DNA from: an uncultured Candidatus Saccharibacteria bacterium
Lineage (GTDB): Bacteria; Patescibacteriota; Minisyncoccia; Phycocordibacterales; DATDWN01
NCBI GenBank assembly: GCA_964469605.1
Contig: CAYXZA010000004.1
Location: 1 to 37,606 of the forward strand
DNA length: 37,606 nt
Direction: 5' to 3'
Part shown: piece after piece, positions 9,647 to 37,420 of the stretch
How the letters are laid out: every line of letters begins with the position of its first letter
How positions within the stretch are numbered: position 1 is the first letter of the stretch
Program-made: the position numbers and the translations under genes
Notes under the pieces: model-generated
Seen by the model: only the letters and a program-made list of their open reading frames with translations
The model's database searches: none
What the model was told of the DNA's origin: nothing

Positions 9647-9765
9647 AACCATTATGAAGGAAGAAATTATAAAAAAAGAACAGGAGATTTTAAAAAAAAT
9701 ATTCAAAAAATTAGAACTGATTGAAGAATTGTTTGCAGATGAAATTTTAAACAGAACAAAGAAAA

Positions 9766-11085: not shown

Positions 11086-11108
11086 AAAAGGCGCCGAAAC
11101 GCCTTTTT
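11086..11108. terminator. intrinsic terminator between convergent genes
   Basis: aaaaaggcgccgaaacgccttttt: a GC stem with A-run and T-run on either side, so it can act in both orientations. Confidence 0.6.
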
Positions 11109-11240
11109 CCTGCTTAGACGATTTTCGTCAATAGACTACTAGTCACCCCAGCAGATGTTTCCGGCTTGGATGCCGGTTTTGGTCTTGATCTTCATGAGAT
11201 CTCCTTTCTTTTTGTAAATTAGCATATATTAAAAATCTTG

Positions 11241-11912: not shown

Positions 11913-11987
11913 ATAAAAATACTAACATTTAATTTGATAAACAAGAAATTGATATTTTTGAAAATTTATTATAATATGTTTAGTATT

Positions 11988-12911
11988 ATGATAAAAGTTT
12001 TTGGACATATTTCACCTGACACAGATGCAACTTGTAGTGCTATAATCTGGGCTTGGTATATAAAAAATCACAGTGCACTTGATGCAAAACCTTTTGTATT
12101 GGGTGGTTTAAACAAAGAAACAGAATTCGTTCTCAGAAAATGGGGTGTTGAAACACCTGATTTGCTCCCACCTTTACAAGAAAGTGATGAGGTTATGATA
12201 GTTGATACAAACAATATTCAAGAGCTTCCTGAAAATATACTCAAATGCAACATACTTGAAATAGTTGACCATCATAGAATTGTCTCTGGGATTGAAACAA
12301 AAGGGCCTATAAATATGACTGTTAGAACATTTGCTTCAACAGCTTCTGTTATAAACTATGTCATGAGAGAAAATATAGAAATACCAGAAGACATAGCTGG
12401 TCTTATGCTCTCTTGCATACTTTCTGATACTCTTGAATTTAGATCTCCAACTACTACAAACTACGACAGAGCTATTGCTGAAAAATTAGCTAAAAAACTA
12501 AATATTGATATAAAATCATATGCAAATGAAATGTTTGATGCAAAATCTGATGTTTCCGATTTTACAGATAAAGGCCTTGTGCATTTAGATAGCAAAAAAA
12601 GTACAGTAGGAAACAAAAACATCAAAGTTTCAGTTATAGAGACTACAAATACAAAATCAATTTTAGAAAGAAAAGATGGTATTGTGTCTGCAATAAAAGA
12701 AATACTTTCAGAAGAAAAAGATGTAGACGATGTGTTATTTTTTGTTGTAGATATCTTAAAAGAAGAATCTATTGTCTTTACATACAATCAATTTTTGAAA
12801 GATATTGTTGCAACATCGTTTTCAACCACAAATGACAAAGAATTTCAAGTTTTACCTAAAATCATATCTAGGAAAAAACAAATATTACCAATGTTAAAAT
12901 TACCAAATTAA
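11988..12911 (+). CDS. ppaC: DHH/DHHA2 phosphoesterase, likely Mn-dependent family II inorganic pyrophosphatase
   Basis: MIKVFGHISPDTDATCSAI and IVDHHR motifs (DHH). Length about 308 aa matches family II PPase. The ORF track starts at 11934, but the ATG at 11988 follows a TTGAAA..TATAAT promoter-like element. Confidence 0.6.
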   Translation: MIKVFGHISPDTDATCSAIIWAWYIKNHSALDAKPFVLGGLNKETEFVLRKWGVETPDLLPPLQESDEVMIVDTNNIQELPENILKCNILEIVDHHRIVSGIETKGPINMTVRTFASTASVINYVMRENIEIPEDIAGLMLSCILSDTLEFRSPTTTNYDRAIAEKLAKKLNIDIKSYANEMFDAKSDVSDFTDKGLVHLDSKKSTVGNKNIKVSVIETTNTKSILERKDGIVSAIKEILSEEKDVDDVLFFVVDILKEESIVFTYNQFLKDIVATSFSTTNDKEFQVLPKIISRKKQILPMLKLPN

Positions 12912-12915
12912 ATCT

Positions 12916-14013
12916 ATGAAATTATCTATTGGTATCGTCGGTCTGCCAAATGTTGGTAAATCTACTCTTTTTAATGCTCTTACAAAAAAATCTGTTCCGG
13001 CAGAAAATTATCCATTTTGCACAATAGATCCCTCTGTCGGTATAGTAGCTGTTCCAGATAAAAGACTTTGGGAGTTATCTAATTTTTCTAAATCAAAAAA
13101 AACCGTTCCGGCTGTTATAGAATTTGTAGACATTGCAGGTCTTGTAAAAGGAGCTTCAGAAGGTGAGGGTCTTGGAAATCAATTTCTCTCTCATATAAGA
13201 GAAACGGATGCAATACTTCAAATAGTTAGAATATTTGAAGATACAAAAGTAATACACATAAACAACAAAATAAGTCCAAAATTTGATATAGAAATAATAA
13301 ATCTGGAGCTTGTATTATCTGACAAATCAACTGTAAATAAAAGACTGGGGAGTTTAGTCAAAGATATTAAAAAGGGAATGAAAGAAGCTGTATTTGAAGA
13401 AATTGTTTTAAAAAAAGCACTTTCTGTTTTAGAAAAAGAAATGTTGCTAAGTCAAGAAAGTTTTGATGAAAAAGAATTTAAAGTATTAAAAAATCTAAAT
13501 TTACTTACAATAAAGCCGATAATATTTGGACTGAACAAAAAAGCTGGAGGGATAAATTTAGATCAAACAAAAGATGATAGATGGATTGAACTGTTAGAAT
13601 ATTTAAATAAAAATAATTTTAAATACATAATAATAGATGCAAAAATTGAAAATGATCTTAAAGATCTTGAAGGAGAAGAAAAAGATGTTTTCAGAAAAGA
13701 GCTTGGTGGAGATGATGATGGTATAGATAACCTTATAAAAGAATGTTATAGGACACTCGGACTTGAAACATTTTTTACAACAGGTGAAGACGAAAGCAGG
13801 GCTTGGACAATACAGAAAGGATCAACAGCTCCTGTTGCCGGAAAGGCAATACACAATGACTTTGAAGATAAGTTCATAAAAGCAGAGGTTATAGAATACG
13901 ACAAATTGCTTTCTTGTGGTTCTTTTATCTCTGCAAAAGAAAAAGGGTTACTAAGAACAGAAGGTAGGGAATACATAGTAAAAGACGGTGATGTAATTGA
14001 GTTTAAAATTTAG
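12916..14013 (+). CDS. ychF: ribosome-binding ATPase YchF (Obg-family GTPase)
   Basis: GIVGLPNVGKSTLFNALT P-loop, NYPFCTIDP, DIAGLVKGAS, C-terminal TGS domain. Confidence 0.92.
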   Translation: MKLSIGIVGLPNVGKSTLFNALTKKSVPAENYPFCTIDPSVGIVAVPDKRLWELSNFSKSKKTVPAVIEFVDIAGLVKGASEGEGLGNQFLSHIRETDAILQIVRIFEDTKVIHINNKISPKFDIEIINLELVLSDKSTVNKRLGSLVKDIKKGMKEAVFEEIVLKKALSVLEKEMLLSQESFDEKEFKVLKNLNLLTIKPIIFGLNKKAGGINLDQTKDDRWIELLEYLNKNNFKYIIIDAKIENDLKDLEGEEKDVFRKELGGDDDGIDNLIKECYRTLGLETFFTTGEDESRAWTIQKGSTAPVAGKAIHNDFEDKFIKAEVIEYDKLLSCGSFISAKEKGLLRTEGREYIVKDGDVIEFKI

Positions 14014-14130
14014 AAAAAACAAAAATCCCCGAAATTCCTAGGAAATTTCAAATGGGATCTTTGATAAAAGAATACCAATTTTTTATATTTTTGTCAAATA
14101 AATTGTAAATATATTTTAGGAATTTAAGTA

Positions 14131-14151
14131 TATAAAAAACCACTTTTGTGG
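14131..14151 (-). terminator. weak intrinsic terminator abutting the stop of the 14152..14706 gene
   Basis: On the minus strand: agccacaaaagtggtt stem followed by TTTTTTATA. Confidence 0.35.
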
Positions 14152-14706
14152 CTATTTTGCATATACAAATCTTATACCAAAAATATTTGAAAAACCTTTA
14201 TTTGGTTTATAAGAAACAACTTCATAAAGTTTTACTTTTCCTCCAAAAAAATTTATTTCCACTCTTGGACCAAATCCATAAGGTGAATATAGTAAAGATC
14301 CAACTCCAACTTTATTATTTATTTTGAAGTTTGTTTGGTTCATTACAAATCTACCACCTTTATGTTCTAATGTGAAAAAATTAGAAAAATTATTCCTTTC
14401 AAAATAAGTGAAATGTGCAAATCTTAATCTTGATGATTCTGACCAATTATTTATTCCGAGACCAGATCCAAATTGTAAACCTCTGACTTGAAAAAATGGT
14501 CCAGAATATGCCTGAAAATCCTTACCTTTAAATTCTTGCACCCATCCAAATACACCTGTATTTTTTGCTGTATTTTGTTGAATCCATAAGGCATTATAAT
14601 AATCATACTTACCATTGCGATTAAAATGTTCAGTAAATAAATAGCTTTGACAATAAATATCCAATGAAAAAAATAAAAAAAGTAGCTGTTTCATTCCGGA
14701 AGACAA
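14152..14706 (-). CDS. hypothetical secreted beta-rich protein
   Basis: N-terminal signal-peptide-like segment (LLFLFFSLDIYCQS). Aromatic/Gly-rich beta-type composition. C-terminal aromatic residues. Confidence 0.45.
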   Translation of the reverse strand: MSSGMKQLLFLFFSLDIYCQSYLFTEHFNRNGKYDYYNALWIQQNTAKNTGVFGWVQEFKGKDFQAYSGPFFQVRGLQFGSGLGINNWSESSRLRFAHFTYFERNNFSNFFTLEHKGGRFVMNQTNFKINNKVGVGSLLYSPYGFGPRVEINFFGGKVKLYEVVSYKPNKGFSNIFGIRFVYAK

Positions 14707-14774
14707 TTTAACATATTATATAGTAAAGAACAAATGTTGACCTGCTGGTTTTAAATGCATATAATTTAACAATT

Positions 14775-15737
14775 ATGGAAAATACAAAAACAAAAGTTAA
14801 AGAGTTTTTCTTGGAATTATCATCTCAAGTGGCTTTTTATACTGTTATTATTAGCTTGGGAAATATGCTTTTTAAAATAATCAATAAAGCATATGGTATT
14901 TATGGTAATTATTATTATGGAGTAGAAAATTTCAATTTAGCATTACCACTTTCTATTTTAATAGTTTCTTTTCCTATATTTGCAATACTAACTATTTTAC
15001 TTGAAAAAAACTATATATTAAACCCGGAAAATAAAGATATCTTGATAAAAAGACTTTTAACCTATCTAACACTTTTTGTCTCTTCTGTTGTATTTTCTAT
15101 TTCAATAATCATAATCCTTTATAAGTTTTTAGATGGACAGGAGATTTTGACAGGTTTTGCCTTTAAAATAATAACCGTGATAATCCTTTCCGCTTTGAGT
15201 TTCTCTTATTACTTGGCAGAAAGTAGAAATAGATTAAATCTAAATTATAAAAAAATATCTATTTATGTTTTACTTGCAATTGTAGTTGGTTCAACCATAT
15301 TAGGATTTGTTATTATTGGTTCACCTTCAAAACAAAGGCAATTGAAAGAAGATTCTGCAATGATAAACGATATGAGACTTGCAAACTCACAAATAGAATC
15401 TTTTTACTATAACAAAAGCAGATTGCCTGATAATCTAAAAGAACTAACCAGTGATTCATATTATTATATAAACAACAATAGTAAAATAACATATCAAAAA
15501 GTTACAGAAAATAGTTATAAAATCTGTGGTGATTTTAATTTTGATTATGTTTTAAGTCCTGATGCTGTTATAAAACAAGTATATCCAGCAATGCCAGAAG
15601 ATACTGATTGGATGTATAAAAAAGGTAAAACTTGCTTTGATAAAAATACAGAAAGATTAAACAAAAAAGAAACTGGCTATCCCACAATACCTAGATTTAA
15701 AGTTGATGAGACATATCCAATACCAGAGCCACTATAA
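14775..15737 (+). CDS. polytopic membrane protein with a C-terminal pseudopilin-like (type IV pilin fold-like) domain
   Basis: About 5 N-terminal TM helices. Then KQRQLKEDSAMINDMRLANSQIESFYYNKSRLPDNLKEL, which resembles the conserved helix/loop of GspG or type IV pilin globular domains, including conserved Cys. Confidence 0.45.
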   Translation: MENTKTKVKEFFLELSSQVAFYTVIISLGNMLFKIINKAYGIYGNYYYGVENFNLALPLSILIVSFPIFAILTILLEKNYILNPENKDILIKRLLTYLTLFVSSVVFSISIIIILYKFLDGQEILTGFAFKIITVIILSALSFSYYLAESRNRLNLNYKKISIYVLLAIVVGSTILGFVIIGSPSKQRQLKEDSAMINDMRLANSQIESFYYNKSRLPDNLKELTSDSYYYINNNSKITYQKVTENSYKICGDFNFDYVLSPDAVIKQVYPAMPEDTDWMYKKGKTCFDKNTERLNKKETGYPTIPRFKVDETYPIPEPL

Positions 15738-15792
15738 CACAGGTTTGTTTTCTCGGTCTTTCAGAAAGCCCTAATTTTGTAAGTAAATTAGT

Positions 15793-16719
15793 CTATTTGA
15801 AGTTATTGTGCAGATATATGTAAATATCTTCTAGTGCTTTTATACCATCTCCAGATGCTATGTTATTTTGGTGATACAAACCATCTGTGCAATCCCCAGC
15901 AGCCCAAACTCCTAACTGTGATGTTCTTTGGTTTTTAGGATCTGTTATTATGTAACCATAATCATTTAATTTTAAGATATCTTTTGCAAACTCTGTTGTT
16001 GGTATAGCACCTATCTCCACGAAAATACCTGTTGTTTTTATATTTTGCAAATTACCTTCTTTGTCTTTATAAGAAAGTCCTGATACAAATCTATCTCCAT
16101 ATATTTCAGAAAGGGAAGTGTTTGTCATTATCTTTGCTTTTGGATTAGATCTTATTTTCTCAATAGTTATCTCATCGGCTTTAAACTTATCTGTTCTGTT
16201 TAAAATAGTTACAGAGTTGCAGTATGCTAAAAGTTGAGCTGCACTTTCAAAAGCAGCATTTCCACCACCAATAACCACAACATCTTGACCAGAAAAAAGA
16301 GGTCCATCACAAGAGGCACAATATGTAATACCTTTGTTTTCAAAAATATCAGCACCTTTTACATCAAGTTTTCTTCTATGAGAACCTGTTGCGATCAAAA
16401 TTGTTTTAGATATAAAAACAGAAGAATTTGTTTCTATTTTAAATAGGTCATTTTCTTTGGAAATTTTTGAAACATACTGATCTTCAAAAATAGAGACAAA
16501 CTCTCCACTATAAGCTTTTAAATGATTTTCAAGAGATTTTGATAGCTCCATACCAGATATCTTTATTGTTCCTATCCAGTTTTGAACTTCATCAGAAACA
16601 GAGCTTTGACCCTGGAAGTCTTTTGTTATAAAAGCTGTTTTTAGTTGTTTTCTGGCAGCATAAACACCAGCAGATACTCCTGCTGGCCCTCCTCCTAAGA
16701 TTGTAAGATCATATATCAT
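15793..16719 (-). CDS. trxB: thioredoxin reductase
   Basis: LGGGPAG FAD motif, redox-active CASCDG, VIGGGNAAFE NADPH motif, GVWAAGDC. Confidence 0.92.
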   Translation of the reverse strand: MIYDLTILGGGPAGVSAGVYAARKQLKTAFITKDFQGQSSVSDEVQNWIGTIKISGMELSKSLENHLKAYSGEFVSIFEDQYVSKISKENDLFKIETNSSVFISKTILIATGSHRRKLDVKGADIFENKGITYCASCDGPLFSGQDVVVIGGGNAAFESAAQLLAYCNSVTILNRTDKFKADEITIEKIRSNPKAKIMTNTSLSEIYGDRFVSGLSYKDKEGNLQNIKTTGIFVEIGAIPTTEFAKDILKLNDYGYIITDPKNQRTSQLGVWAAGDCTDGLYHQNNIASGDGIKALEDIYIYLHNNFK

Positions 16720-23754: not shown

Positions 23755-25839
23755 TTAAAATATGTCTGCCAAAACATCTCCTATAAGGCTGTCCACGTCA
23801 ACACCTTTGCCATTTTGAAGATCTGTAATCTTATTAGCCAATTCTTTATGTAATTTTATTAAAACTTCGTCTTCAGTTGTTAAACTATCGCCAATAAATT
23901 CTTGACATAATTTATGCATTTTTATCTTTGCTCTAGATGTATTCCATAATTCTACATAAACAACAAGCCAATTTTTATTTGAAATTCCATCTCTTAAAGA
24001 TTTATACTGTGATTCAATATAACTTCTTAACCCTGTTATTATCCCCAATAATCTACTCGGATTATCTTTAGAATCAAGTGGCTCTACTCTTAACACTTCT
24101 TCTATTTCTCTAACTTTTTCCATTTGGACTGAAGCAATTTGTATGTGCATGCTTTTCAAGTTTAAAATTAAACTTTTTATTAAAGCCAAATCTTCTGTTA
24201 ATGCTCTGTGAGCCTCCGCTGTCATAATTCTTTGATTCTCAGCAGGATGTAAAGGTTTATTTGGTTTATCTATAGGCCTTGCTTCTCTTGGTTTTTCTGG
24301 CACTTTCGGTGGCTCAATATTTTCAACTGGACTCGCCATCCTTGCAAAAGCAGCCGCCATACTGCCAGATTGAACACTAAAACCAACTCTTGGAACATGC
24401 ACATCCCTCTCATTTTCTCTATCTATTTTTTCCAACTCATCTTTTATTTCTAAAAGATTTTTTTCTGCCCTGCTAAAATTCGGAGTTTGATTTGGCATAC
24501 AATACCCCCCTTTACCTTCTAAAATATCTTTAGCCTCAAGCCATTTTGTACTCAATTCTAAAAACCTTCCCTCAGTAATTATGCCTCGAGAATCAAAAAG
24601 ATTTGCTTTCAATTTTAGTGCCACAAGTTCACCAACTTCTGTTTTCAAAAGTAAAATCGCATCTCCTTCTAATGGCACACTATTAGGATTTCCATGCTCC
24701 ATAAAATACCAAAAATCGTCTTCTCTTTGTTTTAAAAATTGCTTTTTCTCTGAATCAACCTCTTCAGAAATTTTTCCTGTATTATCAAACTCTGGCTCTC
24801 CTCTAAATGCTTTATATAATTCAGCAATATGCATACTTGGACAATCAGCTCGTTCATATGAAATCCCCCACTTTTGGTTAGAGCTATAACCACATCTATC
24901 TTTTAAAAACTGTAAAGCTTGAGGGGATAAATTTCCAGACCAAGATTTCCAAGTTTTCCAATCACCAGTCAATAACCAAACAGCTTCTTGCTCTATATGT
25001 TCTTTATATTTTCTTTGACCTCCATAAAATTTAACTTTTTCTTCGTCGTGTATGAATGCAGTTAATTCTTTTTTATTTCTATTTGATAACTCTTCCGCAT
25101 GATACTCCCTTACAGTTTTACCTTTAGGATCACCTTGTCCCGGAAGTCTATTCCATTCATTGTCACCACCTAACACAGTATTTACTTTTTGTCTTTCTTC
25201 AACATATTTTGATAACTCATCCAAAAGTCCACCTTTAATATCTTTTAATAATTGAGCAGCGGAGCGAATATCAGGCTTGTTTTCAGTAACCGCTACCGTC
25301 CTTGCTGGACGCATGCCATCAGGCGATTCTCCAAAACTTTCCATAGAATTCCTTGTTATGTTTCCGCTTAATTGAATGTCCGGCATTCTACCTCTTTCCA
25401 TCTCTTTGCCTATTAAAAATAATTCACAGGTATCAGAAATTGGCTCAAATTTATTGGTTTTTATATTGTATCTTTCCCTTGGCTTATAAGCATAGCCTTT
25501 GGGAAGATCGTGGGCATTTTTTACCCCAACCCCATTAAGCCAAGTGCTTATAATACCTGCAAATTCATGAGCAAAAATCTGCACCTCTAAAGTATAACGT
25601 TCTGGTTCTTTTTCATATCTTCCAACCAAACTTTCAATACCCGCTTGCGGATTTTCTTGTTCTTTCATAAACCTCTTTACTACTGGATAATATATTTTAG
25701 AAATACTTGCATCTGATTGAAAAAATTCTCCTAAAGGCTGGTAATCTGGCTTACGAAAAAGTGTTTTTTCCGGTGAAGTAGGATTTTTTATATCTCCAGC
25801 ATTAAAAAAAGTATTTGATTCATTAAAAGGTCTGGACAT
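23755..25839 (-). CDS. large hypothetical protein (694 aa), Trp- and charge-rich, no recognisable family
   Basis: Long uninterrupted ORF. Noticeably higher GC than neighbouring genes. No motif known to me. Divergently arranged to the MBL-fold gene. Confidence 0.6.
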   Translation of the reverse strand: MSRPFNESNTFFNAGDIKNPTSPEKTLFRKPDYQPLGEFFQSDASISKIYYPVVKRFMKEQENPQAGIESLVGRYEKEPERYTLEVQIFAHEFAGIISTWLNGVGVKNAHDLPKGYAYKPRERYNIKTNKFEPISDTCELFLIGKEMERGRMPDIQLSGNITRNSMESFGESPDGMRPARTVAVTENKPDIRSAAQLLKDIKGGLLDELSKYVEERQKVNTVLGGDNEWNRLPGQGDPKGKTVREYHAEELSNRNKKELTAFIHDEEKVKFYGGQRKYKEHIEQEAVWLLTGDWKTWKSWSGNLSPQALQFLKDRCGYSSNQKWGISYERADCPSMHIAELYKAFRGEPEFDNTGKISEEVDSEKKQFLKQREDDFWYFMEHGNPNSVPLEGDAILLLKTEVGELVALKLKANLFDSRGIITEGRFLELSTKWLEAKDILEGKGGYCMPNQTPNFSRAEKNLLEIKDELEKIDRENERDVHVPRVGFSVQSGSMAAAFARMASPVENIEPPKVPEKPREARPIDKPNKPLHPAENQRIMTAEAHRALTEDLALIKSLILNLKSMHIQIASVQMEKVREIEEVLRVEPLDSKDNPSRLLGIITGLRSYIESQYKSLRDGISNKNWLVVYVELWNTSRAKIKMHKLCQEFIGDSLTTEDEVLIKLHKELANKITDLQNGKGVDVDSLIGDVLADIF

Positions 25840-30074: not shown

Positions 30075-30602
30075 ATGTTTTCAGATCCCAAAAAAAATGT
30101 TTCCTTGATGCAAATACCACCAGGTAGCAAAGTCTGTGATATTGGTGCTGGTTCAGGTTTTTATACTATAGAAGTTGCAAAACATCTAGCAAACACAGGC
30201 AAAGTCTTTTCTGTTGATATTCAGAAAGATATTTTGTCAAAAATACAAAATGATGCAAAAAGTTTAAACCTATCAAACACCGAAGTTTTATGGGGTGATG
30301 TAGAAAGTGATGATGGTTTAAATTTAGCTGAAAATACTATGGATTACTGTATTTTATCAAATACACTTTTCCAAATAAAAAACAAGAAAAAAGCCTTATC
30401 TGAAATAAAAAGAATTCTTGTTCCAAATGGTAAACTGATTTTGATAGATTGGGCTGATTCTTTTTCTGGTATAGGTCCGCAAAAAGAATATGTTGTAAAA
30501 AAAGAAGATGCTCTTTTGCTTTTTGAAAAAGAAGGTTTTGTAAAAGAGAGAGATTTTGATGCCGGTTCTCATCATTATGGTATAATATTTCATAAGTTAT
30601 AA
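30075..30602 (+). CDS. class I SAM-dependent methyltransferase
   Basis: Motif I VCDIGAGSGFYT and motif post-I VFSVDIQ. The ORF track begins at 30018, but the ATG at 30075 (MFSDPKK) is more likely. The stop is 3 nt before the next gene. Confidence 0.72.
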   Translation: MFSDPKKNVSLMQIPPGSKVCDIGAGSGFYTIEVAKHLANTGKVFSVDIQKDILSKIQNDAKSLNLSNTEVLWGDVESDDGLNLAENTMDYCILSNTLFQIKNKKKALSEIKRILVPNGKLILIDWADSFSGIGPQKEYVVKKEDALLLFEKEGFVKERDFDAGSHHYGIIFHKL

Positions 30603-30605
30603 AAT

Positions 30606-31898
30606 ATGAGTAAATTTAAATTAGGAATCTTAATAGTCTTTGGTTTGTTTATAGTCATAGGTGTTATTGTTTTTGCATCAAGTAAAAATACCAACAACAC
30701 TTTTTCAGCAAATCTTGTAATGTGGGGGACAATAAACCAGTCAACAGCAAATGACTTTCTTTCAAGATTTGATTTTGATTCAAAAAAAGAACTGACTGTT
30801 ACATATATACAGAAAAAACCAGAAAATTTTGGAACTGAACTTGCAGAAGCTATTGCAGACGGCAATGGCCCTGACATACTTTTATTACCATCTGATATTA
30901 TTTTCAAACAAAAAAATAGAATATTAGAAATCCCTTACAAAAGTTATCCAGAGAGGACATACAAAGATACATTTATAGAGACATCTGAAATATTTTTAAA
31001 TAAAAACGGAATATTGGCTCTACCAGTCTTGATAGATCCACTTGTTATGTATTGGAACAGAGATATTTTTAGAGAAAAGTTAAAAACATCTCCTCCTTTG
31101 CATTGGGAAGAATTTCAAAATATAGCACCAGAATTTGTAGAGAAAGACAATTTAGGTAACATTAGAAAAACTTTTGTATCTTTTGGAGAATGGAGAAATG
31201 TATCAAACTCAAAGGAGATATTATCAAACTTGTTTTTACAAGTTGGAAACAATATAGTATCAAAAAACGAACTTGGTCTACAAAGTGACTTACTTGAAAA
31301 CAAAGGTCAAAATACAACACCAGCTATTTCTGCTGTAACATTTTATACCCAGTTTGCAAATCCAACTCAAAAAACATATTCTTGGAATAGATCTATGCCA
31401 AAATCACAAGAATTTTTCCTATCTGGTGATATGGCAATATATTTTGGTTTAGCATCTGAACTTTCTAGTATCAGATCTAAAAATCCAAATTTAAATTTTG
31501 ATCTAGCCCTTGTTCCACAAACAAAAACAGGTCAAAGTAAAGTTTTTGCAAGATTGTATGGACTATCTATATTAAAAAGTTCCAAATTTATCCCACACTC
31601 TTTTCAAGCTATAAATATAATGACATCTGGACAGCAGATTACTGCACTTGAAGAGATAACAGGTTTACCACCAGTTAGAAAAGATTTGCTTTCAAAAATA
31701 CCAACAGACTCATATAAATCTGTATTTTACAAGAGTGCAATATGGTCAAAAAATTTCATAGACACAGACGGACAAACCACAAATAGTATATTTCAAAATA
31801 TGATAGAATCTATAACATCAGGAAGGTCAAGTATTTATGAAGCAGTTAGTGGTGCAAATGATTCATTAAACGATCTTTTAAGTAAATATGGAAAATAA
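30606..31898 (+). CDS. membrane-anchored extracellular solute-binding protein (MalE/UgpB-like, SBP family 1)
   Basis: N-terminal TM anchor. LVMWGT..GPDILLLPSD..LVMYWNRDIF and overall 430-aa architecture typical of family-1 ABC substrate-binding proteins. No permease or ATPase genes are adjacent. Confidence 0.68.
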   Translation: MSKFKLGILIVFGLFIVIGVIVFASSKNTNNTFSANLVMWGTINQSTANDFLSRFDFDSKKELTVTYIQKKPENFGTELAEAIADGNGPDILLLPSDIIFKQKNRILEIPYKSYPERTYKDTFIETSEIFLNKNGILALPVLIDPLVMYWNRDIFREKLKTSPPLHWEEFQNIAPEFVEKDNLGNIRKTFVSFGEWRNVSNSKEILSNLFLQVGNNIVSKNELGLQSDLLENKGQNTTPAISAVTFYTQFANPTQKTYSWNRSMPKSQEFFLSGDMAIYFGLASELSSIRSKNPNLNFDLALVPQTKTGQSKVFARLYGLSILKSSKFIPHSFQAINIMTSGQQITALEEITGLPPVRKDLLSKIPTDSYKSVFYKSAIWSKNFIDTDGQTTNSIFQNMIESITSGRSSIYEAVSGANDSLNDLLSKYGK

Positions 31899-32271
31899 AA
31901 AATATAAAATATTCATACTCTTTTCTCTTTTGTTACCGACTACATTTCTACTAGCAGGAAGTGATCTTTATCCTTGCGATGGTCCAAATTGTGAATTTGG
32001 AGATATGGTAAAACTAGTTATTGCAATAGTAAACAGACTAACTACATATATTTTTATATTAAGTCCAATAATCATCGCTTGGGCTGGTTTTCACTATATA
32101 TGGAACATACAAAGTTCTGGAAAAAAAGAGGAGGCCAAAAAAATACTTCAAAACTTAGTTACAGGACTTGCCATAATACTGTTATCTTGGACAATAATAA
32201 CAGTTTTTTTAAGAGTCTTTGCAAACAACGAAGTATTGAAGATGTCGCCTATTAACCCTAACAAACCATAA
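31888..32271 (+). CDS. small secreted two-helix membrane protein, paralog 1 (VirB2/TrbC-pilin-like architecture)
   Basis: Sec-type signal peptide, CDGPNC pair, hydrophobic helix, charged loop (SSGKKEEAKK), second hydrophobic helix. Overlaps the SBP stop by 11 nt. Confidence 0.55.
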   Translation: MENKKYKIFILFSLLLPTTFLLAGSDLYPCDGPNCEFGDMVKLVIAIVNRLTTYIFILSPIIIAWAGFHYIWNIQSSGKKEEAKKILQNLVTGLAIILLSWTIITVFLRVFANNEVLKMSPINPNKP

Positions 32272-32678
32272 TGAAAAACAAACAATACATCAAAATATTT
32301 TTAATATTTACTATACTATTTTTAAGTAACTTTTCTTTAGTTTTGAGTGGTCAACAAAGTGTTGATTCAGGAGGTGGATCTATAGCAAATCTAGATATAA
32401 ACATTCCAAATCCACTGAAAGGTGGTGCAAAGAGTATACCGGAAATAGTAACCTTAGTATTAGATTCTATTGTTATACCACTAGGCTCTGTTGTTATTGT
32501 TTTGGCTATTATATATTCTGGATGGAAGTTTATAATGGCACAAGGTAACAGTGCAGACATACAAAAACAAAAAGAAAACTTAAAATGGGTTGTTGTAGGT
32601 TCAGCTATTATACTTGGAGCAAAAGCTATATCACTAGCAATCAATTCAACAATATCACAAATCAGCATATTCAAATGA
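32271..32678 (+). CDS. small secreted two-helix membrane protein, paralog 2
   Basis: Signal peptide, Gly-rich linker, helix 1 ending AQG, charged loop NSADIQKQKENLKW, helix 2. Start overlaps the previous stop. Confidence 0.55.
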   Translation: MKNKQYIKIFLIFTILFLSNFSLVLSGQQSVDSGGGSIANLDINIPNPLKGGAKSIPEIVTLVLDSIVIPLGSVVIVLAIIYSGWKFIMAQGNSADIQKQKENLKWVVVGSAIILGAKAISLAINSTISQISIFK

Positions 32679-33010
32679 AAAAAATTATCTTAACATCTTT
32701 ATTTTTTCTGATTCCAACACTTGTTTTTGCATTTCCTGCAAACTTGGGTGATTTTATAAAACTACTTTTGAGTTTGATAGACATAATAATACCCATAATG
32801 TCCGGTTTTATAATGATTATCTTTTTTTACGGAACAGCTCTTTTTATCCTAGCACAAGGTGACATAGTAAAAACACAAACAGGAAAAAGTTTTATGTTAT
32901 GGTCAGTTCTAGGCATATTTCTATTGGTATCTCTTTGGGGTATAATACAAGTCATGTCAAACGAACTTGATTTTGGACAAATTAGAAGACCAACATTACC
33001 AACAAATTAA
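32675..33010 (+). CDS. small secreted two-helix membrane protein, paralog 3
   Basis: MKKIILTSLFFLIPTLVFA signal peptide. FYGTALFILAQGD-loop-KSFMLWSVLGIF...LWGIIQVMSNELDFG. ATGA start/stop overlap with paralog 2. Confidence 0.6.
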   Translation: MKKIILTSLFFLIPTLVFAFPANLGDFIKLLLSLIDIIIPIMSGFIMIIFFYGTALFILAQGDIVKTQTGKSFMLWSVLGIFLLVSLWGIIQVMSNELDFGQIRRPTLPTN

Positions 33011-33011
33011 A

Positions 33012-33488
33012 ATGAAAAAAATATATTATTTTACAACAATATTTACAATACTTTTTTTACCACAAGTTTCAAATGCCGCTCTTTCTGGCATAAAAGGACT
33101 TTTACTAGATGTTAAAAGTATAGTCGGAAATCTGATACCAATAGCATTTGGACTAGCTATTGTTGCATTTTTCTTTGGTATTGCAAAATTCATATATGAA
33201 GCAGGAAATCCAGAAAGTAAAAATAAAAACAAAGCTATTATATACTGGGGAGTTATTGCAATAGCTGTAATGGCATCTATTTGGGGTATAGTAGGATTAC
33301 TCCAAAATATTTTTGGTGTAGATAAAATGGTTGGAAATCGTCAGGGTCCACCAACTACAGATGTATCATCTAATGTCTCTTTTCCATCAAATGACACTGG
33401 TGGAGGAGGTGGTACAAGAGATCAAGATTTAAGTTCAGATGGTGGAGATGGAGGTGATACATATAATGATATTTTTAATACTTTTTAG
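33012..33488 (+). CDS. small secreted two-helix membrane protein, paralog 4, with Gly/Asp-rich C-terminal tail
   Basis: Signal peptide ...VSNA. FFGIAKFIYEAGNPESKNKNKAIIYWGVIAIAVMASIWGIVGLLQNIFGV. Tail GGGGGTRDQDLSSDGGDGGD. Confidence 0.6.
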   Translation: MKKIYYFTTIFTILFLPQVSNAALSGIKGLLLDVKSIVGNLIPIAFGLAIVAFFFGIAKFIYEAGNPESKNKNKAIIYWGVIAIAVMASIWGIVGLLQNIFGVDKMVGNRQGPPTTDVSSNVSFPSNDTGGGGGTRDQDLSSDGGDGGDTYNDIFNTF

Positions 33489-33592
33489 TTATAACTATAA
33501 AAAATTTTTTCAAATTATAGACTTTAAATTATCCACTTATTTATAAATAAAAAATTGCTGTTATCTTATTTTTGTTATAAAATATATACATT

Positions 33593-33607
33593 GGTCACTT
33601 GGCTTTT
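33593..33607. repeat. short repeated motif ggtcacttggctt, copy 2 (upstream of pilin-like paralog 5)
   Basis: 13-mer identical to 8034-8046. Lies in the 160-bp gap between paralogs 4 and 5. Confidence 0.5.
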
Positions 33608-33648
33608 CAAATGACAAATAAAATAAATTATTAATAAATTATTAAATT

Positions 33649-34014
33649 ATGAAAAAAATTGTATATACAATCCTTTCCCTAAGCCCAGCACTTACACTGG
33701 CAGCAGAAGGTACTTTTAATGTTGGTTATTTTGATAATATACTAGATCTGATAAAAAGAATAACAAAAGCTGGAGTTCCAATACTTTTTGCAGCAGCTGT
33801 TATTATATTTTTCTATACAATATTGAGATATATATTGGCAGCCGGAGAAAAACCAGAAGATGCTTCTAAAAGAAGAGGTGCTATTGTTTGGAGTCTTATA
33901 GCCATAGCTGTAATGGCATCTGTTTGGGGTCTTGTGGCTTTCTTGCAAAACATTTTTGGTGTGTCTTCTACCGGTGGCACAAATATCAACCCACCAACAA
34001 TTAATGGTCTATAA
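33649..34014 (+). CDS. small secreted two-helix membrane protein, paralog 5
   Basis: Signal peptide ...TLA. FYTILRYILAAGEKPEDASKRRGAIVWSLIAIAVMASVWGLVAFLQNIFGV, near-identical to paralog 4 over the second helix. Confidence 0.6.
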   Translation: MKKIVYTILSLSPALTLAAEGTFNVGYFDNILDLIKRITKAGVPILFAAAVIIFFYTILRYILAAGEKPEDASKRRGAIVWSLIAIAVMASVWGLVAFLQNIFGVSSTGGTNINPPTINGL

Positions 34015-34016
34015 AA

Positions 34017-34295
34017 ATGATCCCTTTTATAAATAAGGTAAATCAGGTCATAATAAATCCAATAATTGTTTTGGCTTTAGCTGTAGCTGTATGTTACTTT
34101 ATATATTCCATAATAAATCTAATACTTGAATCTAAAGAAGGAGGCAAGGAATTACAAAAAAGAAAAGATGCTGTTATATATTCAATAGTAGGAATATTTA
34201 TAATGGTATCTGTCTATGGAATAATAAACTTTATACTATCAAGTATAGATGTATCCGCTCCTCCTTATTTAAAAAATAAATTAGAGGGTCAATAA
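34017..34295 (+). CDS. small two-helix membrane protein, paralog 6 (shortest)
   Basis: Helix, ESKEGGKELQKRKD loop, AVIYSIVGIFIMVSVYGIINFIL. Same architecture but lacks a clear cleavable signal peptide. Confidence 0.5.
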   Translation: MIPFINKVNQVIINPIIVLALAVAVCYFIYSIINLILESKEGGKELQKRKDAVIYSIVGIFIMVSVYGIINFILSSIDVSAPPYLKNKLEGQ

Positions 34296-34349
34296 GATCA
34301 AAAGACGGGTTTATCCCGTTTTTTGATATAAGAAAAGGGCCTTAGCCCT

Positions 34350-35123
34350 TTATTTACAATCTTTTTCTTTATAAGTTATAGATAACTTACAATCACCACT
34401 AATACAAGGTTTTTCCGTAGAAAAACTAATTCTTTCTTTGTTATAATCATAAGAAAGTGTTGCATTTTTGTTATCTATTCTAAGTAGAGACTTATAAACT
34501 CCACTTAGATCATACCTTTTCATAATAATTGTATGTTTATCATAATTTGAAAAATCAAGATCAATACCATTTGGATATTTACATTTTGCAGTTTCTCCAT
34601 CTGCCAAGTCTACAACATCCGTATACAATGTATTTACATTTTTTTTGCCTTCTCCAATGGATTGGAAAAACTCAATAGAGGATTCACCTGTAAAATAAGA
34701 TTCTATTGTATTATCGGAGTATAGACTCCAAATGAATACAAAAATCAATATAGTGATGAAACTAGAACCCCATTTTTCTAAGAAACTTTTTTCTCCTTTT
34801 TTGATCTCTTTATTTAAAGAGAAAATTGTTATGAGAATAATTATTACAAATAATATTCCTATTTTTTTATAGACACTTTCCTGCAAGATAATCGGAAATT
34901 GATTATACAATACAAAAAGTGTTGCGGTAAAGGGTAGAAAAAATGTTAAACCAGCATTAGCAAATTTATCATCTTTTTCTATATATTTGTAATATGCAAA
35001 AAGTATTGTTGCGATAAAGGATATTGTTATCAATACAACAGTGACAGGAGTAAAATATATCAATGTTAAGATACCTACAATAAGAATCAGGGAAATGATT
35101 ATCAGAATCAAAGATTTAAACAT
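34350..35123 (-). CDS. polytopic membrane protein with Cys-containing C-terminal extracytoplasmic domain; possible NfeD-like partner of the SPFH protein
   Basis: 4-5 N-terminal TM helices, then an approximately 110-aa soluble domain with several Cys. Start abuts the stop of the upstream SPFH gene, suggesting an operon. Confidence 0.45.
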   Translation of the reverse strand: MFKSLILIIISLILIVGILTLIYFTPVTVVLITISFIATILFAYYKYIEKDDKFANAGLTFFLPFTATLFVLYNQFPIILQESVYKKIGILFVIIILITIFSLNKEIKKGEKSFLEKWGSSFITILIFVFIWSLYSDNTIESYFTGESSIEFFQSIGEGKKNVNTLYTDVVDLADGETAKCKYPNGIDLDFSNYDKHTIIMKRYDLSGVYKSLLRIDNKNATLSYDYNKERISFSTEKPCISGDCKLSITYKEKDCK

Positions 35124-36179
35124 TTAGTTTCCACCTCTTTTTTTACGATTTCCACCACTCTTATTACCCTGACCTCCACTCATTCCAATAAATCCACCTT
35201 TAAATTCACTTAGACCTTGTGCTTTAATGGCTGTAAGTAGAATTTCTTTAAATACATCTGGATCAGTCTTTCTCAAATCTTTATATTTTTCAAAAAATGT
35301 ATCCATAAGCAATAGAAGGTCTTTGGTGCTTGCTTCTTGAGCAAGTGCAGAGGCTTTTGCATCTCTTTCTGCAACTTCTAGTCTAGTTTGGGCATCTCTT
35401 AGTTCTTTATCCCGTTTAACAAGTGCCAGCTCTGCCTCTTCAACAGTTTGTTGAAAAATTGGATCAGAGAAACCAACACCATGAGTAAAAATATTATAAA
35501 CATCAACACCAACATCTTTTATTCGTTTAGATATCTCTTTTGATATCTCAACTGACAAAATTGTTCTGTCCATAGAAATTATTTCTCCAGCATTATGTCT
35601 CACTGCAACATTTTCAAAAGCAGCATTAACACATTCAACTATTTTTTGATAATATTTTCCTTTATACTCATCAACAAGCTGTCTTGGTCTTAAGACCTTA
35701 ACATCCATTGCTATAGAAATGAAAACTTTTACACCATTTCTACATTCAATGTCTCTAATGCTAATAGCAGTAGGAAAAACTCTTTTTAGAAATTTAATCT
35801 TTTTGGTTCCAGGTATAAATTCACCTTGTTCATTAAATTTTCCATAATTTATTTCAAAACCATATACTTTACCTAAAATGCCTATGTAGTAAAGAGTTCC
35901 ATTTTTAATTTTACCCAAACTCTCTTTTACTTCTTCTTCATCATCTATATAATGTCCTTTACTATTCATTTTGATTTTTGAGATTGAAGCTACAGTAGAA
36001 CCTTTTGCAATAAACACAAAAGATTCATTTGGAATAAAGGTAAAAATCATGTCTTTTTCAGCTAGTTTATATGCAATTTTTACACCAACAAAAAATATCA
36101 AAGAACCAGATGCAATAACAAATACTATTAAAAGTATTGTGTTCAACATTCCACACAAAAAACTATCATAAAAATACAA
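35124..36179 (-). CDS. SPFH/band-7 domain protein (stomatin/flotillin/HflKC-like)
   Basis: N-terminal TM helix, SPFH-like core, then Ala/Glu-rich coiled coil (EEAELALVKRDKELRDAQTRLEVAERDAKASALAQEA) and a Gly/Lys-rich tail. Confidence 0.8.
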   Translation of the reverse strand: MYFYDSFLCGMLNTILLIVFVIASGSLIFFVGVKIAYKLAEKDMIFTFIPNESFVFIAKGSTVASISKIKMNSKGHYIDDEEEVKESLGKIKNGTLYYIGILGKVYGFEINYGKFNEQGEFIPGTKKIKFLKRVFPTAISIRDIECRNGVKVFISIAMDVKVLRPRQLVDEYKGKYYQKIVECVNAAFENVAVRHNAGEIISMDRTILSVEISKEISKRIKDVGVDVYNIFTHGVGFSDPIFQQTVEEAELALVKRDKELRDAQTRLEVAERDAKASALAQEASTKDLLLLMDTFFEKYKDLRKTDPDVFKEILLTAIKAQGLSEFKGGFIGMSGGQGNKSGGNRKKRGGN

Positions 36180-36379: not shown

Positions 36380-37420
36380 ATGAAATCACAAAAAACAAAC
36401 ATTTCTTTTAAACCAAAACAGGTAACAAAATCACTTCTTTCAGTTCTATCAAAAAGAGCATCTGATGTTATATCTGGTAGATACGGTCTTGGTTCTGATA
36501 CAAAGAAAATGACTTTGGAATCTATTGGAAAAAAATACAAGATAACAAGAGAAAGAGTCAGACAGATAGAAAATAATTCTATTTCAAATATAAGAAAATC
36601 TAAAGAATATGAAAAATCCAAAGAAGTTTTTACTGAACTAAAAAACATAGTCAAATCATTAGGTTCTGTTATATCTGAGGAAGAACTTTTGGAAAATATA
36701 TCAAAAGATAAATCCACTATAAACCACATACATTTTCTTTTTGTGATAGGGGAAGATTTTGTCAAAGAAAAAGAAGATGAACATTTTAGACATAGATGGC
36801 ACATAGACAAAGAACTGTCTAAAAAAATACACGAAGCAATAAAAAATCTATACACATCTATTGGAGATGATGAGATTTTGACTGAATCTGAAATGATAAA
36901 AAACTTTCTTGGTCAAATAGAAAATTTGTCAGAAGAATACAAAAATGAAGAAATTGCAAAAAGATGGCTTAGAATATCTAAAAAAATCGGACAAAATAAG
37001 CTTGGTGAATGGGGAAAAACAGACTCTCCAAATATAAACACAAAAGGAATGAGAGATTATGCATTTTTAGTTATAAGAAAACACGGTTCTCCTATACATT
37101 TTAGAGAAGTTGCTAAACTGATATACCAATGGTTTAACAAAAAAGCCCACACAGCAACTACACACAATGAACTAATAAAAGATCCTAGATTTGTTTTGGT
37201 TGGAAGGGGACTTTATGCTCTATCTGAATGGGGATATATGTCAGGAGTAGTAAAAGATGTCATAAAAAATATGCTTCAAAAACATGGACCAATGACAAAA
37301 GATCAGATAGTGGACAAGGTTATGAAAGAAAGATATGTAAAAGAAAATACTATAATGGTCAATCTGCAAAACAGCAAAGTCTTTAAAAAGACAAAGGATG
37401 GTAAATACTCCGTTGCATAA
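36380..37420 (+). CDS. DNA-binding protein with an N-terminal sigma-70 region-4-type HTH and a C-terminal HARE-HTH-like winged helix
   Basis: MTLESIGKKYKITRERVRQIE matches the sigma70 region 4.2 HTH signature. C-terminal PRFVLVGRGLYALSEWGY resembles the HARE-HTH (RNAP delta/RpoE-type) motif. Sigma regions 2 and 3 are absent. Confidence 0.6.
   Translation: MKSQKTNISFKPKQVTKSLLSVLSKRASDVISGRYGLGSDTKKMTLESIGKKYKITRERVRQIENNSISNIRKSKEYEKSKEVFTELKNIVKSLGSVISEEELLENISKDKSTINHIHFLFVIGEDFVKEKEDEHFRHRWHIDKELSKKIHEAIKNLYTSIGDDEILTESEMIKNFLGQIENLSEEYKNEEIAKRWLRISKKIGQNKLGEWGKTDSPNINTKGMRDYAFLVIRKHGSPIHFREVAKLIYQWFNKKAHTATTHNELIKDPRFVLVGRGLYALSEWGYMSGVVKDVIKNMLQKHGPMTKDQIVDKVMKERYVKENTIMVNLQNSKVFKKTKDGKYSVA

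Follow-up and report, generated by a model that had tools for sequence, protein, structure and literature searches.

Six tandem VirB2/TrbC-like pilin genes behind the gene of a membrane-anchored solute-binding protein in a Patescibacterium

Six consecutive small genes on the forward strand of a 37.6-kb stretch of DNA from an ultrasmall Patescibacterium (hereafter the window) encode paralogous members of the VirB2/TrbC-like pilin family, and stand in one operon behind the gene of a membrane-anchored solute-binding protein (SBP). Arrays of this kind are known, but we have found no report of the conserved arrangement seen here: neither the link with an SBP nor the fixed order of pilin types was found in the literature on Patescibacteria pilin arrays. 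An earlier, first-pass annotation of the window had considered an undescribed system, which does not hold, since comparable arrays were published between 2023 and 2025 (PMC10633639, PMC12102498, PMC12857230) and a dedicated Pfam family exists. We think it fairly probable that the six genes provide the VirB2-like pilins of a Patescibacteria-type type IV secretion system (T4SS), with the mechanism proposed below taken as a whole.

The operon begins with a class I SAM-dependent methyltransferase gene (MT; 30075..30602, 175 aa), followed after 3 nt by the SBP gene (30606..31898, 430 aa). The latter overlaps the first pilin gene by 11 nt, the P1 start preceding the SBP stop codon. The pilin paralogs are P1 (31888..32271, 127 aa), P2 (32271..32678, 135 aa), P3 (32675..33010, 111 aa counted from the ATG at 32675), P4 (33012..33488, 158 aa counted from the ATG at 33012), P5 (33649..34014, 121 aa) and P6 (34017..34295, 92 aa). 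Reading the open frames of the window bore out the positions and common strand first assigned to these six genes, and two identical public contigs, independently gene-called, carry the identical set. Coupling through ATGA overlaps, proposed for the array in general, stands for the P2/P3 junction but for no other: P1 and P2 meet in TAATG, gaps of 1 and 2 nt separate P3 from P4 and P5 from P6, and 160 nt of AT-rich sequence (33489..33648) split the array between P4 and P5. This gap may hold an internal promoter for P5 and P6; a promoter scan gave 29 hits against 28.6 expected in AT-rich DNA. The later junctions are loose in relatives too, their median gaps being 15-41 nt and many gaps exceeding 60 nt. 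At the operon end lies an intrinsic-terminator-like hairpin (34305..34324, forward strand; ACGGG-TTTAT-CCCGT, then TTTTT); the scan called the identical stem on the opposite strand.

The first reading of these proteins as VirB2/TrbC-like T4SS pilins is upheld by curated profiles and by a profile-profile match. All six match PF18895 (T4SS_pilin), and the pilin family comprises 45,379 representative proteins. P5 gives the best family match of the six (36.2 bits, E 6.5e-9) and exceeds the curated cut-off together with P4 (28.2 bits, cut-off 26.6); the other four lie below it, namely P1 (25.0 bits, and 20.1 bits for PF04956, likewise under cut-off), P2 (25.5 bits), P3 (16.3 bits, E 0.011; also matched by a clade-specific HMM) and P6 (19.9 bits, E 8e-4). 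P2 also passes the cut-off of PF04956 (TrbC/VirB2; 28.1 bits, cut-off 27.9). Five of the six match the NCBIfam model of a Mycoplasma ICE 'pilin-like conjugal transfer protein', all sub-threshold. When a pooled alignment of the clade was compared by hhalign with seven annotated VirB2/TrbC proteins, genuine Agrobacterium-type VirB2, the two aligned over 78 columns across both helices (probability 66.8%, P 5.3e-5), whereas the reversed-sequence and ATP synthase subunit c controls reached 0.2% and 0.4%.

Short hydrophobic hairpins draw spurious matches, and with four of six paralogs under the Pfam cut-off the hits could be compositional artefacts of two-helix membrane proteins that have no kinship with pilins, for example holins, bacteriocin immunity proteins or subunits of transporters. 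This reading is already largely refuted and seems to us very improbable: both hhalign controls fail where genuine VirB2 aligns, orthologs from other species pass PF18895 and PF04956 alike, and the holin and immunity families, named in the first-pass annotation as the contrary outcome, matched neither in Pfam (E<=1) nor in PHROGs (E<=0.01).

Paralogy of the six genes, also proposed at first, is confirmed by their common Pfam family and by pairwise identities of 20-42%. P4 and P5 are 42% identical and form the only pair that keeps similarity at the DNA level (117 nt, 71% identity), while P3 shares 26-33% identity with P2, P4, P5 and P6 and 24% with P1. By hydropathy, each paralog has two strongly hydrophobic segments with a Lys/Arg-rich loop between them. 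A Sec signal peptide, ascribed to every copy, is present in P1-P5 but not in P6, a two-helix hairpin that begins at helix 1 and has the basic loop ESKEGGKELQKRKD. The supposedly shared LQNIFGV-type end is confined to P4 and P5, the others displaying just a general W/YG-hydrophobic pattern, and the suggestion that this QN.FG ending recalls the TrbC C-terminus is not supported, as neither P4 nor P5 matches TrbC. The Gly/Asp-rich C-terminal tail described for P4 is present. In P1, the signal peptide is followed by a Cys-x4-Cys pair in the mature N-terminus, both Cys being kept in at least 90% of orthologs, and then by the two-helix hairpin; P2, the most TrbC/VirB2-like paralog, carries a conserved NPLK motif ahead of helix 1. 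The AlphaFold2 model of P5 (pLDDT 74.7) predicts a signal helix at residues 2-17 and a hairpin of helices 25-67 and 69-103.

Conservation extends to the arrangement itself. At least three pilin genes lie directly 3' of the SBP gene, a few bases away, in 63 of 64 SBP-orthologous Paceibacteria loci. The arrays count four to seven genes, most commonly six, and their order is fixed across about 60 species: P1, P2, a variable number (2 to 5) of copies of the P3/4/5 type, to which P4 belongs, and P6. P1 comes first in nearly all related loci, P2 is always second, and the P6 type, always short (79-131 aa), is the final gene in nearly all. The layout of the array is far beyond chance; it recurs in about 80 species.

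The copies could nevertheless be interchangeable variants that serve antigenic or host-range variation, comparable to the VirB2 paralogs of Bartonella and Anaplasma, as has been suggested for Patescibacteria (PMC12102498). Their high divergence and the changing number of middle copies would suit this proposal, as would the pace at which they outrun their neighbours: ortholog identity is 32-41% for the pilins (mean 32% for P1, the fastest-evolving type; 41% for the best conserved, in penultimate position), whereas the SBP stands at 46% and GyrA at 72%. However, the P1, P2 and P6 types hold their positions across those species, so that the duplications are ancient and the copies not exchangeable, and DNA similarity is limited to P4 and P5, hence a recombination substrate is absent. 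Furthermore, each of the six array pilins of Southlakia epibionticum is individually essential (PMC10633639). We consider interchangeable variation improbable; the fixed paralog order and the essentiality in Southlakia point to non-redundant pilin roles.

The gene at 30606..31898 indeed encodes a family-1 SBP (PF13416, 50.1 bits, cut-off 27), which has 1,192 homologues and a full-length profile match to PDB chain 4r9f, deposited as 'MBP1' (E 5e-14). Its N-terminus has a single transmembrane segment (residues 6-24) and no lipobox Cys, and conservation in this anchor equals that of the remaining protein, F4, G19 and F23 each reaching at least 95%. The class I methyltransferase was also correctly recognised (Pfam Methyltransf_31 at 6.5e-19, plus Methyltransf_11 and Methyltransf_25; no NCBIfam model at cut-off); it has no hydrophobic segment and is cytoplasmic. 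The MT, frequent at the locus yet dispensable, immediately precedes the SBP gene in 63 of 73 related loci (median gap 5 nt) and is absent or replaced in the other ten or so.

Both proteins might be functionally unrelated to the pilins and merely co-transcribed with them in a compact genome, the SBP serving a distant ordinary ABC sugar importer. Synteny within the clade covers the entire neighbourhood (Lactamase_B, a small gene, GyrA, MT, SBP, pilins and a convergent SPFH pair), and SBP-pilin adjacency alone is therefore weak evidence; in addition, the Southlakia array has no SBP, the MT is not constant, and the SBP resembles a normal oligosaccharide binder. On the other hand, the SBP-P1 gap is at most 10 nt in 56 of 72 loci, with stop and start codons overlapping in 18 (in relatives, the SBP-P1, P1-P2 and P2-P3 gaps have medians of 3, 6.5 and 5 nt), and no related locus has an ABC permease or ATPase gene close to the SBP. 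The linkage also persists at SBP identities from 41% to 62%, and searches with pilin queries and independent gene calls reach the identical SBP-pilin layout. A lack of functional connection is thus a serious possibility, which we hold to be somewhat less than probable, and we count it against our preferred explanation that the SBP link could reflect mere genome-wide synteny of small genomes.

The window ORFs scanned (those of at least 90 aa located before 28 kb, together with the annotated locus genes) include no VirB4, VirB6, VirD4, ABC permease or ABC ATPase, as the first-pass annotation had noted, and no recurrent T4SS candidate appeared within 10 kb on each side of 80 related loci, where the locus adjoins gyrA and is distant from virB4. 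We count the absence of T4SS machinery from the window against the pilin explanation as well. Pilin genes lie away from virB4 in 813 of 1,948 assemblies (PMC12102498), and three genomes with an orthologous locus are VirB4-positive according to the literature. The earlier idea of pilins for a distant T4SS fits these observations, but its 'reservoir' of interchangeable pilins is at odds with the fixed type order and the Southlakia essentiality. T4SS pilins rank among the top-expressed secreted proteins of cultured Paceibacteria (PMC10936435).

In the mechanism that we favour, P1-P5 would be synthesised with Sec signal peptides and P6 would insert without one, each pilin forming a helical hairpin in the cytoplasmic membrane with both ends outside and the basic loop inside. 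A chromosomal VirB4/VirB6/VirB3-type machine, presumably encoded elsewhere, could then draw on this pool of membrane-borne pilins to build a surface filament or conduit used for host-cell contact. The paralogs would act as differentiated subunits that do not stand in for one another. Fast evolution and an occasional N-terminal extension make P1 and P2 candidates for exposed or adhesive subunits; the P3/4/5 type, with its variable copy number, is a candidate bulk subunit, P5 a candidate major subunit, and P6 would represent the conserved terminal type. A 2,170-aa protein of Ig, cadherin and PKD repeats, whose C-terminus is a P2-type module, argues for surface exposure of the N-terminus. The SBP, which would be co-translated with P1, most probably has its role at that surface too, for instance in the recognition or capture of host-derived glycans, and the MT may be an accessory passenger.

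Alternatively, VirB2-family members without an extruded pilus could build a membrane-embedded ring or channel, either as part of a T4SS translocon or in a complex that includes the SBP anchor. Pili are normally missing from monoderm T4SSs (PMC12102498, PMC12857230), single chains with 2-8 covalently fused pilin hairpins exist, the anchor conserved like the globular part of the SBP suggests intramembrane contacts, P6 has no signal peptide, and the best structural neighbours are c-ring hairpins, a result that is not specific. Surface display, in contrast, fits the 2,000-aa adhesin-like ectodomain borne by the homologous P2-type module and the long exposed tail of P4; field reviewers prefer a pilus (PMC12857230), and direct evidence for a ring is absent. 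We rate a ring or channel as unlikely, and count the fused chains against the filament or conduit proposed above, since they could suit an assembly embedded in the membrane no less than a filament. Also on that side are the four paralogs under the Pfam cut-off, a sequence search against solved pilins that gave no match, and the fact that, to our knowledge, a pilus has been seen in no Patescibacterium to date.

With the known Patescibacteria arrays, that is the six PF18895 genes SEML1_0014-0019 of S. epibionticum beside VirB6, VirB4 and PrgI (PMC10633639), the 'Sec secreted array' of TM7x and the 441 VirB2 arrays of 2-11 genes each and 25% mean identity (PMC12102498, Quinonero-Coronel et al. 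2025), the present one shares the tandem same-strand layout of about six small PF18895 proteins, the signal peptide and two helices, an inter-copy identity near 25%, a chromosomal location with no relaxase close by, and a Patescibacterium host. It differs in not adjoining virB4, virB6 or prgI and in standing beside gyrA, headed by a family-1 SBP with a membrane anchor and, usually, an MT. It also belongs to the class Paceibacteria, whereas published arrays are reported commonest in Microgenomatia and Saccharimonadia. The diderm MPF_T pilins Agrobacterium VirB2 and RP4 TrbC have in common with it a leader peptide, two hydrophobic helices, a short basic loop and a length of about 100-130 aa; P2 passes their profile PF04956, and the pooled profile aligns with them across both helices. 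These canonical pilins are cyclised or otherwise processed, and differ in being usually single-copy, located between virB1 and virB3, and found in diderm hosts; the similarity of the present pilins to them is marginal, and solved pilins are unmatched.

Other systems are likened in organisation. The archaeal Ced/Ted DNA-import pili (CedA1-type) likewise combine VirB2-like pilins with a VirB4-like ATPase and no relaxase, are chromosomal, and represent a conjugation system put to a new use, possibly import (PMC9905601), a role also raised for the Patescibacteria T4SS (PMC11665869); they differ by their archaeal host and by having neither a multi-paralog array nor an SBP. PrgZ and TraC, the pheromone-binding proteins of enterococcal pCF10 and pAD1, are orphan SBPs that have no permease of their own; they are encoded alongside a T4SS element of the monoderm MPF_FATA type and control their system via a chromosomal ABC importer (PMC7117660). 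PrgZ is a regulatory family-5 peptide-binding lipoprotein and the present SBP a family-1 sugar-type protein with a transmembrane anchor; the likeness would be an analogy, not homology. Finally, the virB2 paralogs of Bartonella, Anaplasma and Rickettsia are divergent chromosomal tandem copies associated with a non-conjugative T4SS (PMC12102498; PMC2653234), and are read as antigenic or host-interaction variants, whereas the pilin types described here follow an order that is conserved between species and points to distinct roles.

The six tandem genes for VirB2-like pilins (P1-P6) lie on the forward strand at 31888-34295, with the coordinates that the first-pass annotation gave, and its core observation of six consecutive same-strand genes stands. 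They encode proteins of 127 (P1, 31888-32271, +), 135 (P2, 32271-32678, +), 111 (P3, 32675-33010, +), 158 (P4, 33012-33488, +), 121 (P5, 33649-34014, +) and 92 amino acids (P6, 34017-34295, +), and are preceded by genes for a class I methyltransferase (MT; 30075-30602, +) and a membrane-anchored family-1 solute-binding protein (SBP; 30606-31898, +). Translational coupling through ATGA overlaps, proposed for the whole block, is present at P2/P3 only, and the remaining junctions differ: 3 nt separate MT from SBP, SBP and P1 overlap by 11 nt, P1 and P2 meet in a TAATG, and gaps of 1 nt and 2 nt lie between P3 and P4 and between P5 and P6, respectively. P4 and P5 are separated by an AT-rich gap of 160 nt, and a hairpin with a T-run at 34305-34324 marks the end of the operon. 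The gap before P5 (33489-33648) contains several overlapping palindromes and may serve as a promoter within the operon or as a regulatory site; the later pilin junctions of related loci are likewise long.

Hydropathy analysis assigns two strong hydrophobic segments, connected by a Lys/Arg-rich loop, to all six proteins. A signal peptide had been ascribed to each of them; our heuristic call recovers an MKK-plus-hydrophobic leader in P1-P5 and none in P6, and LQNIFGV was not borne out as a motif common to all paralogs. Pairwise identities among the six range from 20 to 42%, with P4 and P5 as the closest pair and the only one to retain similarity at the DNA level.

Membership of P1-P6 in the T4SS_pilin family (PF18895) of type IV secretion system (T4SS) pilins is well supported by profile comparison. 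PF18895 matches all six; its gathering score (26.6 bits) is exceeded by P5 (36.2 bits) and P4 (28.2 bits) and missed by P2 (25.5 bits), P1 (25.0 bits; both E ~1e-5), P6 (19.9 bits) and P3 (16.3 bits), and the precomputed Pfam labels of an identical public contig concur with these assignments. The TrbC/VirB2 profile PF04956 (gathering score 27.9 bits) narrowly accepts P2 at 28.1 bits, reaches 20.1 bits with P1 and leaves the other four without a match, and P2-type orthologs score 28.3 and 22.8 bits. Sub-threshold NCBIfam matches link five of the six to a "pilin-like conjugal transfer protein" of a Mycoplasma ICE, and P1 to a conjugation membrane protein of pLS20.

Homology to canonical VirB2 has moderate support. 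A clade profile built from 405 ORFs of 83 sequences (82 fetched loci and the window) was aligned with hhalign to seven annotated VirB2/TrbC proteins from conjugative MPF_T plasmids, which yielded a specific but moderate probability of 66.8% (P 5.3e-5) over 78 columns spanning both helices. Separate profiles gave 57% for the P1 type and 35% for the P2 type, and all controls remained at or below 0.8%, among them the reversed VirB2 alignment (0.2%) and the E. coli ATP synthase subunit c, AtpE (0.4%). As a single query, P2 retrieved itself only and P5 18 proteins; the profile, run against 1.84 billion representative proteins, recovered 45,379 family members. HMMER searches of PDB sequences with the pilin profile and with P2 found no solved pilin. 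The AlphaFold2 model of P5 (pLDDT 74.7) shows a leader helix followed by a long helical hairpin, a fold too simple for fold searches to give informative matches. Holins and bacteriocin immunity proteins were the competing families named at first reading; neither matched in Pfam (E up to 1) or PHROGs (E up to 0.01), and the pilin interpretation proved right on the strength of PF18895 in all six, the PF04956 score of P2 and the hhalign comparison with VirB2.

In order to place the locus among its relatives, one genome per species was scanned with an alignment of SBP orthologues, which yielded 80 loci with an SBP identity of 41-62%. All of the closest relatives of the locus come from MAGs of Parcubacteria/Paceibacteria, Zambryskibacteria and Taylorbacteria among them. 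Nearly all 80 loci display the same order: a Lactamase_B-like gene, a small gene, GyrA, MT, SBP, same-strand pilin genes and two convergent genes, one of them for an SPFH protein. At least three pilin genes follow SBP in 63 of the 64 loci whose sequence extends 1.5 kb or more 3' of it, and the arrays hold four to seven pilins, most commonly six. For two further contexts, found through pilin rather than SBP queries, separately made gene calls and Pfam annotations show the same layout. The median distance between genes is 5 nt for MT-SBP, 3 nt for SBP-P1, 6.5 nt for P1-P2 and 5 nt for P2-P3, 15-41 nt at the later pilin junctions and 241 nt for GyrA-MT, which indicates that the operon begins after gyrA and that its front half is tightly coupled.

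MT lies directly 5' of SBP in 63 of 73 loci, and in the remaining loci (about 10) an IS200-like transposase ORF takes its place. One such ORF, directly upstream of SBP in the related locus L027 (9225-9911, -), encodes about 228 amino acids with an IS200-like Y1 transposase domain (PF01797, 2e-8); L041, L045, L024 and L053 are among the loci with the same arrangement. In L018 and L062 the GyrA ORF measures 1,213 and 1,216 amino acids vs about 820 elsewhere, possibly due to an intein or other insertion. The 3' flank of the window array consists of two convergent genes, one for a 257-residue multi-pass membrane protein that matches no family (34350-35123, -) and one for an SPFH/Band-7 protein (35124-36179, -) that relatives keep at this position. 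The array-adjacent gene of 33 relatives encodes a protein of about 367 residues without a Pfam match; the 257-residue protein was considered as its counterpart and rejected, as the two are not homologous. The locus is copied exactly in L001 (GCA_013558375.1, contig JACCDG010483606.1), a short NCBI contig of 8.2 kb from an assembly whose contig numbers exceed 480,000, and in L002, a Logan assembly of the sequencing run SRR10036056; the organism is thus represented in two or more public data sets besides the 111-kb contig.

When the pilins of relatives were typed by their best-matching window paralog, almost every locus showed the order P1, P2, two to five P3/P4/P5-type genes, and P6. Mean ortholog identity is 72% for GyrA, 51% for MT and 46% for SBP, and among the pilins 32% for P1, 37% for P2, 34% at the third position, 41% at the penultimate one and 39% for P6. 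P1 orthologs have two conserved cysteines before helix 1, and P2 orthologs have an NPLK motif in common. We infer that the paralog types are ancient, differentiated subunits. The array had been proposed as a pilin reservoir. The middle group (P3/P4/P5 type) behaves as an expandable set, the only part of the array to do so. Two observations argue against a reservoir of interchangeable variants: the fixed order of types, and the pilins of Southlakia epibionticum, where six tandem PF18895 genes (SEML1_0014-0019) are each essential (Wang et al., 2023; PMC10633639). A constant arrangement of distinct types speaks for a heteromeric structure and against switching between variants.

Natural fusions of the pilin module, to large adhesin-like ectodomains as well as to one another, constrain models of topology and assembly of these differentiated subunits. 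One related species (L080) has, within its pilin array, a gene (9747-16259, +) for a protein of 2,170 amino acids. This protein carries a signal peptide and repeats of the He_PIG, Big_9, Ig-like, cadherin-like, PKD and fn3 types, and its last ~80 residues form a clear P2-type pilin module (ENPLKG...IIYSGFLFVTAQG). Other P1- and P2-type genes have N-terminal extensions of 100-250 residues. Together, these architectures fit an N-terminus that faces outward and, for some subunits, a role in adhesion. The representative library also contains single chains with two to eight tandem pilin hairpins behind one signal peptide, which make up many of the top 150 profile matches; examples are P0149 (552 amino acids), P0188 (820), P0139 (353) and P0148 (248). 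An internal start-like sequence is absent from three of the four multi-hairpin chains inspected, the exception being P0188 (at residue 383), and for this reason they look like true fusions, or "polypilins", and not like merged gene calls. Such chains are topologically consistent, and they are compatible with a filament or with a membrane-embedded ring.

In the window, which covers 30 kb upstream and 3 kb downstream of the array, no genes for VirB4, VirB6, VirB3 or VirD4 were found among the ORFs scanned (those of at least 90 amino acids before position 28 kb, and the annotated genes of the locus), and no recurrent candidate for T4SS machinery appeared within 10 kb on either side in the 80 related loci. 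Table S1 of PMC12102498 assigns three genomes that carry the orthologous locus, GW2011_GWA2_40_14, C7867-006 and Zambryskibacteria RIFOXYC1_FULL_39_10 (loci L016, L040 and L045), to class Paceibacteria and enters them as VirB4 "Yes"; by analogy a T4SS is likely to be encoded elsewhere in the genome of this organism. The window itself is chromosomal DNA of 30% GC, a composition at which a promoter scan gave no informative signal. It is dense in housekeeping genes (RRF, an RseP-type protease, ProRS, MreB, MreC, PBP2, YceG, YchF, a thioredoxin-reductase-like protein, FtsZ, FtsA, YbeY, HisRS, LepB, Pth, S1 and GyrA), also encodes a DUF5671 protein, and contains neither a tRNA nor an Rfam family. 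A 346-residue protein combining a Sigma-70 region 4 (Sigma70_r4) domain with a HARE-HTH domain is encoded at 36380-37420 (+). Two proteins without a Pfam match, of 694 (23755-25839, -) and 439 residues (9766-11085, +), were considered as divergent VirB4/VirB6 and rejected, being hydrophilic, without a P-loop by eye and without a hydrophobic stretch; the 439-residue protein contains an HELTH (HExxH-type) motif.

With 50.1 bits against PF13416 (cut-off 27), the solute-binding protein falls within family 1 (PF13416/PF01547), and its nearest solved relative, aligned over the full length (residues 2-424, E 5e-14), is PDB chain 4r9f, which is deposited as "MBP1" and which we take to be a mannooligosaccharide-binding protein; maltodextrin binders match more weakly. 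An AlphaFold2 model from a 14-sequence alignment (pLDDT 51) was too poor for a fold search or cleft analysis. The protein has one N-terminal transmembrane segment and lacks a lipobox. This hydrophobic segment and the globular part have the same mean top-residue frequency, 0.57, and F4, G19 and F23 are kept in at least 95% of orthologues. Conservation of the segment to the level of the globular part is uncommon among cleaved leaders, which suggests an anchor that is retained under specific constraints. Genes for an ABC permease or ATPase partner were found neither among the scanned ORFs of the window nor among the recurrent neighbors in the 80 loci. The protein may work with the pilins or may only share a transcript with them. 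The preceding gene product, MT, is a predicted class I SAM-dependent methyltransferase with a Rossmann-type SAM-binding domain (Methyltransf_31 68.5 bits, Methyltransf_11 52.8, Methyltransf_25 52.7), for which no specific NCBIfam equivalog was reached.

We speculate that the SBP could be a dedicated part of a VirB2-like surface apparatus, translated together with the ordered pilins, and could serve as a receptor that couples host-glycan recognition or capture to the T4SS filament, either to its assembly or to its gating, a reading that we ourselves hold to be rather improbable. If it were true, the essential Patescibacteria T4SS would be tied to the sensing of nutrients or host surfaces and not to the export of DNA or effectors; if the SBP is irrelevant, the finding amounts to one more annotated pilin array. 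For ligand screens and pull-downs, a tightly coupled, orphan, sugar-type SBP also provides a starting point that is soluble and can be expressed. The accounts of the Patescibacteria T4SS that were consulted mention no SBP ("solute-binding" has no occurrence in PMC12102498), and the Southlakia array lacks one (PMC10633639). The enterococcal PrgZ is likewise an orphan SBP, and its gene belongs with a monoderm T4SS element (PMC7117660); the analogy is functional, between proteins that are not homologues.

Altogether, the locus does not change the picture of the Patescibacteria T4SS; for Paceibacteria, the largest class, it supplies three features that can be put to the test (the fixed order of pilin types, the coupled SBP and the fusions of pilin modules), and its interest rests on the unexplained coupling to an SBP and on the evidence that the subunits are differentiated. 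No other monoderm T4SS is described as potentially able to build a conjugative-type VirB2 pilus (2025 review of the Patescibacteria T4SS, PMC12857230). The Patescibacteria T4SS is essential to epibiotic growth in the one species tested, its role has been called completely unknown (PMC11665869), and T4SS pilins are among the five top-expressed signal-peptide genes in cultured Paceibacteria (PMC10936435). The alternative reading of the block as an undescribed system gives way before the tandem pilin arrays already described in Patescibacteria (PMC12102498; PMC10633639). With PF04956, PF18895 and the pilin profiles of CONJScan, VirB2-like pilins were detected in 1,948 VirB4-containing Patescibacteria assemblies, and 441 tandem arrays of 2-11 pilin genes with a mean identity of ~25% and a maximum of 54% were recorded as well (Quinonero-Coronel et al., 2025; PMC12102498). 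The window array resembles these in its six genes of low mutual identity. Proximity of pilins to virB4 (within 20 CDS), seen in 1,135 of the 1,948 assemblies, is typical and not defining (PMC12102498), and VirB6, VirB4 and PrgI adjoin SEML1_0014-0019 in Southlakia (PMC10633639); unlike in that majority, no VirB4-like ORF was found near the window array, over 30 kb on its 5' side and 3 kb on its 3' side. The locus is a conserved, SBP-led and virB4-detached form of the known Patescibacteria pilin array.
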